Part shown: in pieces, positions 1-2,597 of the stretch | Position numbering within the stretch: position 1 is the stretch's first letter | Layout: every line of letters starts with the position of its first letter | Source: a bacterium | Lineage (GTDB): Bacteria; Patescibacteriota; Minisyncoccia; Phycocordibacterales; CAIZIN01 | Length of the DNA: 47,490 nucleotides | Direction of reading: 5' to 3' | NCBI GenBank assembly: GCA_031409775.1 | Contig: JANNXY010000041.1 | Coordinates: 1-47,490, forward strand | The notes under the pieces: model-generated | The model's input: only the letters and a program-made list of their open reading frames with translations | Told to the model about the DNA's origin: nothing | Database searches by the model: none | Made by a program: the position numbers and the translations under genes

Positions 1-94
1 ACTAAATGCAACATACTCAACACCTTTCATTTCCTAGGAGTGCCAGAGAGTTATATAGCAACCTGAGATACGGGAAGGTGACTCAATCGAGAGA

Positions 95-1495
95 TTGGGG
101 TTTTTGAAGTGGGTGGGGAGGGTTTTGTGCAACAAAGCCCTGGCCGATGGCACTGTCCAGGACATCAAACTCGAAGATGAGCAAGGAGAATTGGACTTCA
201 TCATGAACCGCTTTCCTTTGCGCATGCGCAAGGCAGTGGCTACGGACAAGTTCACCGATTTCCCGGAGCATCTCGTGAAAATGCGTGAATTCGATCTCGA
301 AGAAGACAGTTTAGATTTGATTCCAGACCATCATGTGATCGAAGTCGGCAAGACCAAGAAAACCAAATTTATCCTCGATAAAGTACCCGCAGAAATGACC
401 GGACTTGAGGAGGGTGATACGGTGCTTATGCCGCTCGGAGGTTCGGGCGATTATTTGGCCTTTGCTATGTCGGTGCGAGCGGAACAGATCGGAGCCAAGG
501 TGCTCCGAATTCCACCTCGCCGTATCAAGGAAGAGCGCGGTAGGCTCGTGAATGTAACTGTCGTAGGTGTTTCCGATGATCATGATATTATCAAAGCACT
601 TTACGACGGCGAACCTGGTAGCTTCTATCCAGTCACCGCTCGGCAGCGGGATATGATTGAAGCCCGAGAAACATTCCGAGCCCGTGAACATATGCAGCAG
701 GAGCGCAAAAGCTGTGCCATGCGTGTGCGTCAGAGGGGTATCGGTGAGACATTTGTCCGTGCTGATGGCCTGTTCCCACAAGGATCGATCGAGAAACGCT
801 TCGACGAATTGCTCGCTGATGACGATCTACTCGATCTGATTACACGCAAGGAAAAACGACTTGAAACAGAGTTAGCGAAGTTTCTCGAAAGGATCCCCGT
901 ATATAACAAAGTCTTTGGATCGATCGAGGGTGTGGGCCCAGTTATTGCGGCTGGCATCATCTGCACCGTTGGCGACATCAGGCTCTTTGTGCGGAGCGGG
1001 GGCAATCTCCGTTACCGTGCAGGCAAGCTAAAGAAGTATTGCGGTGCTTGTCCGGGGCCAGATGGGAAGCTTCTCAGGAAAACAGCAGGGAAAACCTTGC
1101 CTTATACTCCAGGACCTCGGCAGGCGATATACAAATTCGCCCAGCAGATGATCAAGCGCCCAGGTTCTGATTGGGGAGTGCGTTTAGTAGCCAACAAGGC
1201 GTATTATGCTGCGAAGCATCCAATCGAAACTTTGGTTATCAAATTGCCTGCAGGAAGTACCAAAGAGTATTTGATCGATGGCGTTACTTGTCGCAAGGCA
1301 GGTACTGGTCATGAGCTTTGGGATGGTGCCGAGTGGCACAAAGTCGTTGGCAAGCGTAAGCATTTCAAGGGTCACCTGCACAAGATGGCCATCTGGAAGA
1401 CGCTGACCGAGTTCGTCGAGCATCTGTATGATGAATGGACGAGGCTCGAGGGGATCATTCCCGGTCAAGGTGGTGGTGAGGCTGCAGCGGCCTAG
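95..1495 (+). CDS. Tas-like (TIGR-associated) RNA-guided protein: IS110/Nop-family RNA-binding domain preceded by a putative RuvC-like (TasR-type) region; start codon uncertain
   Basis: C-terminal half has IS110 Transposase_20/Nop-like motifs (IEGVGPVIAAGIICTVGDIRLF, KLKKYCG, RQAIYKF, GHLHKMAIWK) after a predicted coiled coil (REHMQQERKSCAMRVRQ). No P-x-x-x-x-S-G catalytic-serine loop after YCG (reads YCGACPGPDGK). Directly followed by a dual 9-nt-spacer array. TTG start at 95 with an in-frame stop at 56-58. Confidence 0.8.
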   Translation: MGFLKWVGRVLCNKALADGTVQDIKLEDEQGELDFIMNRFPLRMRKAVATDKFTDFPEHLVKMREFDLEEDSLDLIPDHHVIEVGKTKKTKFILDKVPAEMTGLEEGDTVLMPLGGSGDYLAFAMSVRAEQIGAKVLRIPPRRIKEERGRLVNVTVVGVSDDHDIIKALYDGEPGSFYPVTARQRDMIEARETFRAREHMQQERKSCAMRVRQRGIGETFVRADGLFPQGSIEKRFDELLADDDLLDLITRKEKRLETELAKFLERIPVYNKVFGSIEGVGPVIAAGIICTVGDIRLFVRSGGNLRYRAGKLKKYCGACPGPDGKLLRKTAGKTLPYTPGPRQAIYKFAQQMIKRPGSDWGVRLVANKAYYAAKHPIETLVIKLPAGSTKEYLIDGVTCRKAGTGHELWDGAEWHKVVGKRKHFKGHLHKMAIWKTLTEFVEHLYDEWTRLEGIIPGQGGGEAAAA

Positions 1496-1509: not shown

Positions 1510-2499
1510 GAGTGTCCTTAGATGAACATGCTACTATGCTGCTTCTGAACACCTCTTCCCGTAGTGTGCAACAACCACGCTACGGGACCCTTTCAAAGTA
1601 TTTAATTATTATTGAATCTTTTGAAAGGGTGGGCGGTCTAATGAATATATGTTTCTATGGTGGGTCTGACCACTCATCCCCAATTTCGCCTCGGCGAGTG
1701 CCGGTGTTCTAATAGCCGCCTGTTTCTATCCGCGCATTGAACACCAGCATCTTTTTCAGTTCTTTATACAATTTGGTGACGTAGGCTTGGTTAGAAATGT
1801 TTCTATTTGGTTCCTGCTTACGTTACCAACTACTTTGGCGATGTGGTCTATGACGTGCCTGTTTCTACCTGGCCCCTGACCACACCGTCAGAAATTTGAG
1901 ATGGGCTAACAGCAGCATGATTCTAAGCGGATTCTGCCCATCTCACCGCGACGACTCACCTCGTCGCGGCCTCTTTAGAGTATTTTTCGTCAAGAATTTT
2001 CTGAAGAGGATGTGTGCTTATGGACCAATGTTTCTAGATATTGTATGCACACATTCCTCTTTGCTCTTTGTACAATTTGGTAACGTAGACTTCTCGCCGT
2101 CTGATTCTATTCGATGACTGTTTACGTTACCGACTACTTTGGCGGTGTGGTCTTTCGGGGGCTTGATGCTTAAGTAAAAATGACTACACCGCCAGAAATT
2201 TGAGATGTTTTAACAACATCGTGTTTCTGAAGTCTGCGTGAACACCTCTCCTCCAGCATTTTGAGTAATCGACGTGCTGGAGGCCCTTTCAAAGGATTCA
2301 ATACGGATTGAGTATTTTGAAAGGGTGGGTGGTCTAGAGAAAGCTTGTTCCTAGAGGGCGATTGACCACCCATCCGACCCTTTGCTGGTGTTCTATGTAG
2401 ATCGTGTTTGTAAACATGAAGTGGACACCAGCATCCCTTTCAGTTCTTTGTGATTTGGTAGGCTTGTGCCGTAGTGTTTCTGTATATGGGCTGCTTATC
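1510..2499 (+). ncRNA. TIGR-like stem-loop guide RNA array, 13 units, each with two 9-nt spacers
   Basis: Each unit: 5' stem, CTA/CTT (TTA once), 9-nt spacer A, 8-nt loop repeat (TGTTTCTA consensus), 9-nt spacer B, TG, reverse complement of the 5' stem. Spacer A starts at 1520, 1641, 1712, 1789, 1851, 1909, 2020, 2093, 2155, 2213, 2337, 2396 and 2466. The 3-9-8-9-2 spacing holds in all 13 units. Confidence 0.9.
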
Positions 2500-2502
2500 T
2501 CC

Positions 2503-2536
2503 GCGGAGCGGGAAGTTTTCTTCCCGCTCCGCTTTT
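2503..2536 (+). terminator. Intrinsic terminator closing the array
   Basis: Perfect 13-bp stem GCGGAGCGGGAAG-tttt-CTTCCCGCTCCGC followed by TTTTGTATTT. Confidence 0.9.
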
Positions 2537-2597
2537 GTATTTATGTCTTTTCTTAAAATTTGCCAAAAAATCCATAATAGGTTAGTATTTGGGAACT

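Follow-up and report, generated by a model that had tools for sequence, protein, structure and literature searches.

What is encoded by the row of short paired spacers that follows a split gene at the start of a patescibacterial contig, and which DNA, if any, do these pairs specify? In the window, the whole stretch of 47,490 nucleotides that was analysed (contig JANNXY010000041.1 of assembly GCA_031409775.1), 13 units are found at positions 1520-2491, bounds that correspond to the first base of spacer A1 and the last base of spacer B13. Each unit contains two 9-nt spacers, A and B, which are separated by a loop of 8 nt. The original prediction had joined spacer A of each unit to the reverse complement of its spacer B and proposed the resulting 18-mers as contiguous double-stranded targets, and our script returned the same joined words, identical letter for letter in 13 of 13 cases. 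In the reading that we consider likely, and that accounts for the feature as a whole, each unit specifies one tigRNA with two spacers as its guide halves (26 spacers for 13 tigRNAs), and the units form a stem-loop TIGR array located just downstream of a tas gene of the TasR type. The TIGR-Tas locus described here is an ordinary further case of a system that was described in 2025-2026.

The split tas gene and its arrays

The features of the locus, some of which reside on a second contig of the same genome (C20), are as follows, with units listed from the start of spacer A to the end of spacer B:

1..139, plus strand: right end of an insertion sequence (IS), with the 3' end of the transposase gene at 1-66 and a terminal inverted repeat at 127-139, assigned from reading frame 1 and the end motif
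140..148, plus strand: 9-bp target-site duplication CTGGCCGAT, with its second copy at C20:3102-3110, just before the left end of the IS
140..1495, plus strand: tas from about codon 29 to the stop, encoding a TasR-like protein whose N-terminal part resembles RuvC and which also has a Nop domain
1517..2493, plus strand: predicted downstream stem-loop TIGR array with 13 tigRNA units, U1-U13, assigned from boxes, spacers and folds
1520-1545, plus strand: U1
1641-1666, plus strand: U2
1712-1737, plus strand: U3
1789-1814, plus strand: U4
1851-1876, plus strand: U5
1909-1934, plus strand: U6
2020-2045, plus strand: U7
2093-2118, plus strand: U8
2155-2180, plus strand: U9, whose joined 18-mer is shaped like the descending arm and T-tract of an intrinsic terminator
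2213-2238, plus strand: U10, a hybrid unit whose 5' flank resembles that of U6 and whose 3' flank resembles that of U1
2337-2362, plus strand: U11
2396-2421, plus strand: U12
2466-2491, plus strand: U13
2503..2542, plus strand: intrinsic terminator closing the array, with a stem of 13 bp, of which 10 are G-C, and then TTTTGTATTT
C20:2317-2905: upstream stem-loop TIGR array of 7 units, identified in a genome scan by the same unit build
C20:3017-3110: tas codons 1-31, the start of the gene, following the 7-unit array

The relationship of the encoded protein to TasR is reflected in its sequence and in its predicted fold. A comparison of the Tas ORF to the PDB with phmmer identified TasR (9MTY, E 4e-6), and a Foldseek search with an AlphaFold2 model of the protein (pLDDT 88.2, built on 22 homologues) returned 9mty first (E 1.8e-10), followed by TasH complexes, IS621 and, weakly, Nop5. 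The matches to 9MTY and TasH show that the gene next to the array encodes a Tas protein, which contains a coiled-coil and an RNA-binding domain of the Nop type. The protein also shows a weak Pfam match to Transposase_20, and its named homologues come from records of Parcubacteria, Buchananbacteria and Campbellbacteria. Close homologues with an uninterrupted gene show 61-65% identity. About 15 of the 22 homologues end in at least two alanines (AAAA, KAA or QAA), which follow a poorly conserved tail. The family consensus begins with RxIGIRHRIK, and the stretch encoded on C20 is IIAIIHRVK; neither of them contains an acidic residue. [quoted passage not shown] Since the relatives of the protein belong to a group with a reportedly dead RuvC, binding without cutting appears likely also in the present case and, by analogy, this Tas would probably act as an RNA-guided repressor that binds DNA and does not cleave it.

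The gene is interrupted at about codon 31 by an IS with a length of 1,101 bp. Frame 1 of the window encodes the last 21 residues of a 314-residue DDE transposase located on C20, which matches the Pfam families PF13737 (E 1e-28) and PF01609 (E 6e-21), and the end motif GGCTTTGTTGCAC is found on the minus strand at position 139. From this motif and the 9-bp duplication, we would place the element in the IS5 family and, within it, in the IS903 group. A profile of the 22 homologues connects both parts of the gene, as it matches window positions 143-1486 with its positions 31-455 and C20:3021-3119 with its positions 3-35, and the first 15 residues of the ORF listed at 95..1495 are derived from the IS. 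The sequencing depth of the IS contig exceeds that of the genome by about 9.5-fold (151.8 versus 15.9) in the two runs that contain this contig in full. IS ends are located at the ends of several contigs (C12, C37, C31, C40 and C59), and C20 itself looks joined through the IS repeat, since the sequence flanking it on the right is the same as at the end of C12. As read from the assembled contigs, the true order of the locus is an array of 7 units, tas (split at about codon 31) and an array of 13 units. We infer that the TIGR-Tas system would be impaired at present, because its tas gene is split by the element. Neither an IS-free tas allele nor any joint was found in the contigs compared, which drop rare variants, and the guides may thus be idle.

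The conserved build of the units is apparent in both arrays. A box C (CTA/CTT) is followed by spacer A, the loop, spacer B and a box D (TG), and the whole is closed by a stem. The loop consists of TG, three nucleotides and a triplet resembling box C, with TGTTTCTA as its commonest form, and the triplet preceding spacer B is CTA in most units and CTT, CTG or GTA in 4 of the 13 units of the window. All 20 units (13 in the window and 7 on C20) carry two 9-nt spacers with CT(A/T/C) 5' of spacer A, and TG follows directly on every spacer. In minimum-energy folds, the flank 5' of box C pairs with the flank 3' of box D in 19 of the 20 units, forming closing stems of roughly 6-15 bp, and thus variable palindromic flanks rather than an edge repeat delimit these units, which defines the stem-loop subtype. 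The single unit lacking this pairing is the hybrid U10, which looks as if it had arisen by a deletion from one loop to another and which, judged by its flanks, is probably a product of recombination and not a working guide. As a consequence of this origin, its spacers A and B were probably never a pair. Tandem Repeats Finder did not detect the array at this locus, since the constant parts of its units are only 2-8 nt long. The array is stable between samples, as in a run of a second study (X4) U7 and U8 were unchanged and U9 differed by a single base, an A>G change at position 2176 inside spacer B.

Stem-loop TIGR arrays with box C and box D elements were introduced by Faure et al. (2025, Science; PMC12045711), and CUU/UG boxes and arrays on both sides of tas were described by Xu et al. 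(2026). The closest known systems are those of the CPR proteins PateTasR and CsTasR, which share with the present locus a Tas protein combining a Nop domain with a RuvC-like N-terminal part, two 9-nt spacers between a box C (CUU/CUA) and a box D (UG), variable palindromic stems instead of edge repeats, arrays 5' and 3' of tas, a terminator after the array and a very small host genome. In contrast to these systems, the present one contains a tas gene split by an IS, about seven recurring stem types and the hybrid U10. The dual-repeat arrays of TaTasR and SpTasH share the tandem-spacer logic, the 18-bp target and the box C/D anchors. However, their edge and loop repeats are fixed, their tigRNAs are 36 nt long and they come with a Y/H processing loop at the C-terminus, whereas the edge in our case is formed by a variable stem of the length described above. 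The RNA-binding fold and the use of split guides also extend to the bridge RNA recombinases of the IS110/IS621 family and to archaeal box C/D sRNPs with Nop5 (8wt9, 8wt6 and 3id5), but the locus shows no DEDD recombinase function, donor loop, K-turn/L7Ae elements or rRNA complementarity.

Among 60 relatives, a full-length Tas homologue was found in only one genome, of another family (E 7e-144), three others gave only weak partial matches, and two genomes of the same genus showed no match to the Tas profile. A scan of species-genome contigs with the single Tas protein found no related locus, and a scan of metagenomes identified 80 loci with 28-41% identity, whose arrays carry other forms of boxes and loops and among which a simple unit finder recognized a single array. 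The related locus in genome G028 contains loop hairpins. The exact unit pattern tested was absent from other species genomes and from viral contigs.

Recurring stems and possibly replaced spacers

A second pronounced property of both arrays concerns the recurrence of their stems, which form an ordered series of about seven types. With V denoting the units of the array on C20, this series relates U2 to U11 and V3, U3 to U12 and V4, and U4 to U8 and U13, with further kinship between U5, U9 and V5, between U6 and V6, between U7 and V7 and between U1 and V2. In such paralogous units, identity amounts to 67-75% in the flanks, 86% in the loop and 91-100% in the boxes, whereas it is just 29-31% in the spacers, compared to 27% for any two spacers, which are thus exchanged like cargo. 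The stems of these units differ by compensatory changes. These features suggest that, in both arrays, the duplication of blocks was followed by the replacement of spacers. The 20 joined words share 7-mers and 8-mers at chance level only.

That blocks of about seven units appear to have been copied with their scaffolds kept and with spacers that look random has led us to propose a more specific reading, which we regard as speculative and rather unlikely to be correct, in which the 20 spacer pairs would be records of contiguous 18-bp stretches of foreign DNA, written into conserved scaffolds by a spacer-exchange process. If true, the locus would offer a natural before-and-after case of guide acquisition by TIGR arrays, which is an open question in the field. 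Independently of this proposal, studies of array evolution may profit from the locus, given its duplicated scaffolds with unrelated spacers, its hybrid U10 and the IS inserted into its effector gene.

Geometry and composition of the joined spacers

The way in which both spacers would define a target can be deduced from the work on other members of the family. TasR was reported to act on an unwound contiguous stretch of 18 bp, leaving 8-nt 3' overhangs upon cleavage; tigRNAs with swapped spacers A and B still work, gaps of 0-2 bp between the half-sites are tolerated by TaTasR and the action of the protein is blocked when mismatches fall close to the centre of a spacer (Faure et al., 2025). Similarly, CsTasR, with its stem-loop array from CPR bacteria, was described to engage 9 + 9 nt of a contiguous 18-bp target (Xu et al., 2026). 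Since the cut is located beside the nucleotide paired with spacer base 5 and since the overhangs are 3', the target strand should read A followed by the reverse complement of B, or rc(B). Only this order on one strand would yield 3' overhangs, whereas rc(B)+A would yield 5' overhangs. In the mechanism that follows from the published rule, a dimer of Tas would hold one tigRNA, whose spacer A would pair with one DNA strand and whose spacer B would pair with the opposite strand over the neighbouring 9 bp. The target would consist of A followed by rc(B), with a length of 18 bp and no PAM, and the joined 18-mers would be the correct predicted targets for intact units, with U10 probably excluded. 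The contiguous, gap-free A+rc(B) geometry that had been proposed for this array is thus supported by the published work on TasR rather than by searches for targets. As target predictions, the 18-mers apply a published rule and add little.

The same 18-mers had also been taken to look natural, in that several would read as plausible coding text. This impression did not hold in a comparison with shuffled pairings, as a stop-free frame was found in 20 of 20 true and in 380 of 380 shuffled pairs, with a mean of 4.75 open frames out of 6 in the former and 4.71 in the latter. Because every shuffled pairing contains an open frame, the coding-like appearance carries no information. An ATG or CAT occurs in 12 of the 20 true pairs compared to a fraction of 0.51 of the shuffled ones, and the GC contents of spacers A and B are uncorrelated (r = -0.05) and thus give no sign of a shared source. 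The recognition of a terminator in U9, by contrast with the coding text, was borne out, since true A9+rc(B9) has 8 near-matches with 3 mismatches in the genome and other pairings in the U9 row and column of the 13x13 matrix have 0-3 each. Four of these 8 sites (on contigs C3, C7, C19 and C51) are clear terminators composed of a hairpin and a T-tract. It is suggestive from this one case that A9 and rc(B9) could once have been contiguous in natural DNA. For the most part, the natural look of the 18-mers is not evidence.

Target searches and competing explanations

The TIGR-Tas family comprises RNA-guided proteins that bind DNA, and its natural targets are described as not known in Faure et al. 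(2025) and Xu et al. (2026). Our searches started from a guide set that had increased to 20, owing to the 7 extra units on C20. The own genome (807,706 bases or 0.81 Mb, 92.9% complete) was searched with 13 and then with 20 guides in the orders A+rc(B), rc(B)+A, A+B and B+A, with gaps of 0-2 and derangements of the pairings as null. With 20 guides, in the A+rc(B) order with gap 0 and with the window included, there were 0 sites at 0, 1 and 2 mismatches; for shuffled pairings, the mean number of sites with up to 2 mismatches was 0.6. This agrees with the initial remark that the window holds no exact match and extends it to 2 mismatches and to the whole genome. In gapped settings, the few matches with 2 mismatches remained at the level of shuffled pairs. 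Since a genome with a completeness of 93% permits a clean test of self-targeting, whose outcome is negative at 0-2 mismatches, the result points away from self-regulation by perfect matches and towards foreign or unknown DNA, and we infer that the natural targets would be foreign.

The comparison of true to shuffled pairings, which had been suggested as a check of the joined words, gave no decision at 0-1 mismatch, where both counts are 0, and revealed a modest excess for the true pairing at 3-4 mismatches in the own genome. There, 23 near-matches with up to 3 mismatches compare to 13.6 +/- 3.7 for shuffled pairs (p = 0.014) and 202 with up to 4 mismatches to 159 +/- 17.7 (p = 0.009). The excess is confined to one of 12 settings of geometry and gap, with three thresholds tried, and the other 11 orders and gaps yielded no result with p < 0.05 in this genome. 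Of the 23 near-matches with up to 3 mismatches, 8 are due to U9; upon removal of this unit, the excess is gone at this threshold (15 versus 12.3, p = 0.25) and weaker at up to 4 mismatches (178 versus 144, p = 0.025). In two genomes of the same genus (G001 and G002, 1,355,044 bases, with four contigs of G002 covered to 20 kb and a few small contigs possibly absent), 0 sites were found at 0-1 mismatch for true and shuffled pairings alike, matches with 2 mismatches remained at the shuffled level and the near-match excess was not repeated (272 versus 285, p = 0.59). In 0.52 Mb of related Tas loci from CPR bacteria, the comparison was borderline (142 versus 117, p = 0.07). The excess of near-matches in the own genome is thus weak and unconfirmed.

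For the few guides with which wider collections were scanned, matches were absent or remained at chance level. When five guides and one control with swapped order were scanned for exact matches to viral contigs, U5, U13, U11 and U3 had none, and the 16 matches of U8 compare to 18 of the control. The matches of U8, considered as candidate targets, were rejected as background, since all of them encode FDDDGE in phage genes of high GC content and are surrounded by unrelated sequence. Of the two guides scanned for exact matches to species-genome contigs, U13 had 1 match and U11 had 14, distributed over unrelated taxa; 9 of these 14 matches encode EKAIAL in the frame of genes that are unrelated to each other. 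One match of U11 extends over 18 of 18 positions within an open frame, on a contig with 779 kb and 42% GC from a metagenome-assembled genome (L124), which is within chance expectation. At up to 1 mismatch, U7 had no site in any of 301 genomes of the same order.

Among the competing explanations, the one that fares best, although we consider it improbable, proposes that in this clade the half-sites are ordered as rc(B)+A, or separated by a fixed gap of 1-2 bp, in which case the listed 18-mers would not be the targets. It draws on the tolerance of TaTasR for such gaps (Faure et al., 2025), on the circumstance that the geometry assumed for this Tas would be carried over from other proteins and on a single site in rc(B)+A order with up to 1 mismatch in the 0.52 Mb of related Tas loci, where 0.1 were expected (p = 0.05). 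However, the published 3' overhangs fit the A+rc(B) order only, CsTasR, a protein of the same CPR clade, is reported to bind 18 contiguous base pairs (Xu et al., 2026), and no alternative geometry was found in excess in the own genome or in those of the same genus.

Of slightly lower standing still is the proposal that the guides regulate genes of their own genome through imperfect sites and that the near-matches would thus be the true targets. In the autoregulation of CRISPR systems, guides of the scaRNA type tolerate several mismatches. The fact that the near-match excess for the true pairing appears in the A+rc(B) order with gap 0 only would be in line with such a role, as would the repression of transcription by dead TasR and by TasA described by Xu et al. 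(2026). This is countered by the lack of own-genome sites at 0-2 mismatches, by the twelve settings and three thresholds from which the excess emerged and by its disappearance at up to 3 mismatches once U9 is set aside, whose sites are explained by the generic shape of terminators. Moreover, mismatches in the middle of a spacer block action in the published data (Faure et al., 2025). The existence of same-genus genomes that lack the system and the splitting of tas by the IS both argue against an essential regulator.

Finally, we give very little credence to the idea that the units guide the modification or binding of RNA in the manner of box C/D sRNAs, with each 9-nt spacer pairing alone and the joining of spacers being meaningless: although the Nop fold is common to Tas and Nop5 in the Foldseek comparison and the dead-RuvC clade of CPR bacteria was speculated to be perhaps a step towards box C/D RNPs (Faure et al., 2025), the TasR of CPR bacteria binds DNA in structures and assays (Xu et al., 2026), and a role of the spacers as rRNA guides was rejected for want of complementarity in the own 16S (C59) and 23S (C37) rRNA, to which 0 of 40 spacers are perfectly complementary, compared to a mean of 1.0 for shuffled spacers. 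At up to 1 mismatch, the rRNAs contain 17 sites compared to 30.8 +/- 5.0 for shuffled spacers, a lower number that may reflect avoidance or chance. The 23S gene itself, at C37:493-4622, spans 4,130 bases compared to a model of 2,925 positions and thus contains about 1.2 kb of extra sequence, which may be an intron or an insertion.
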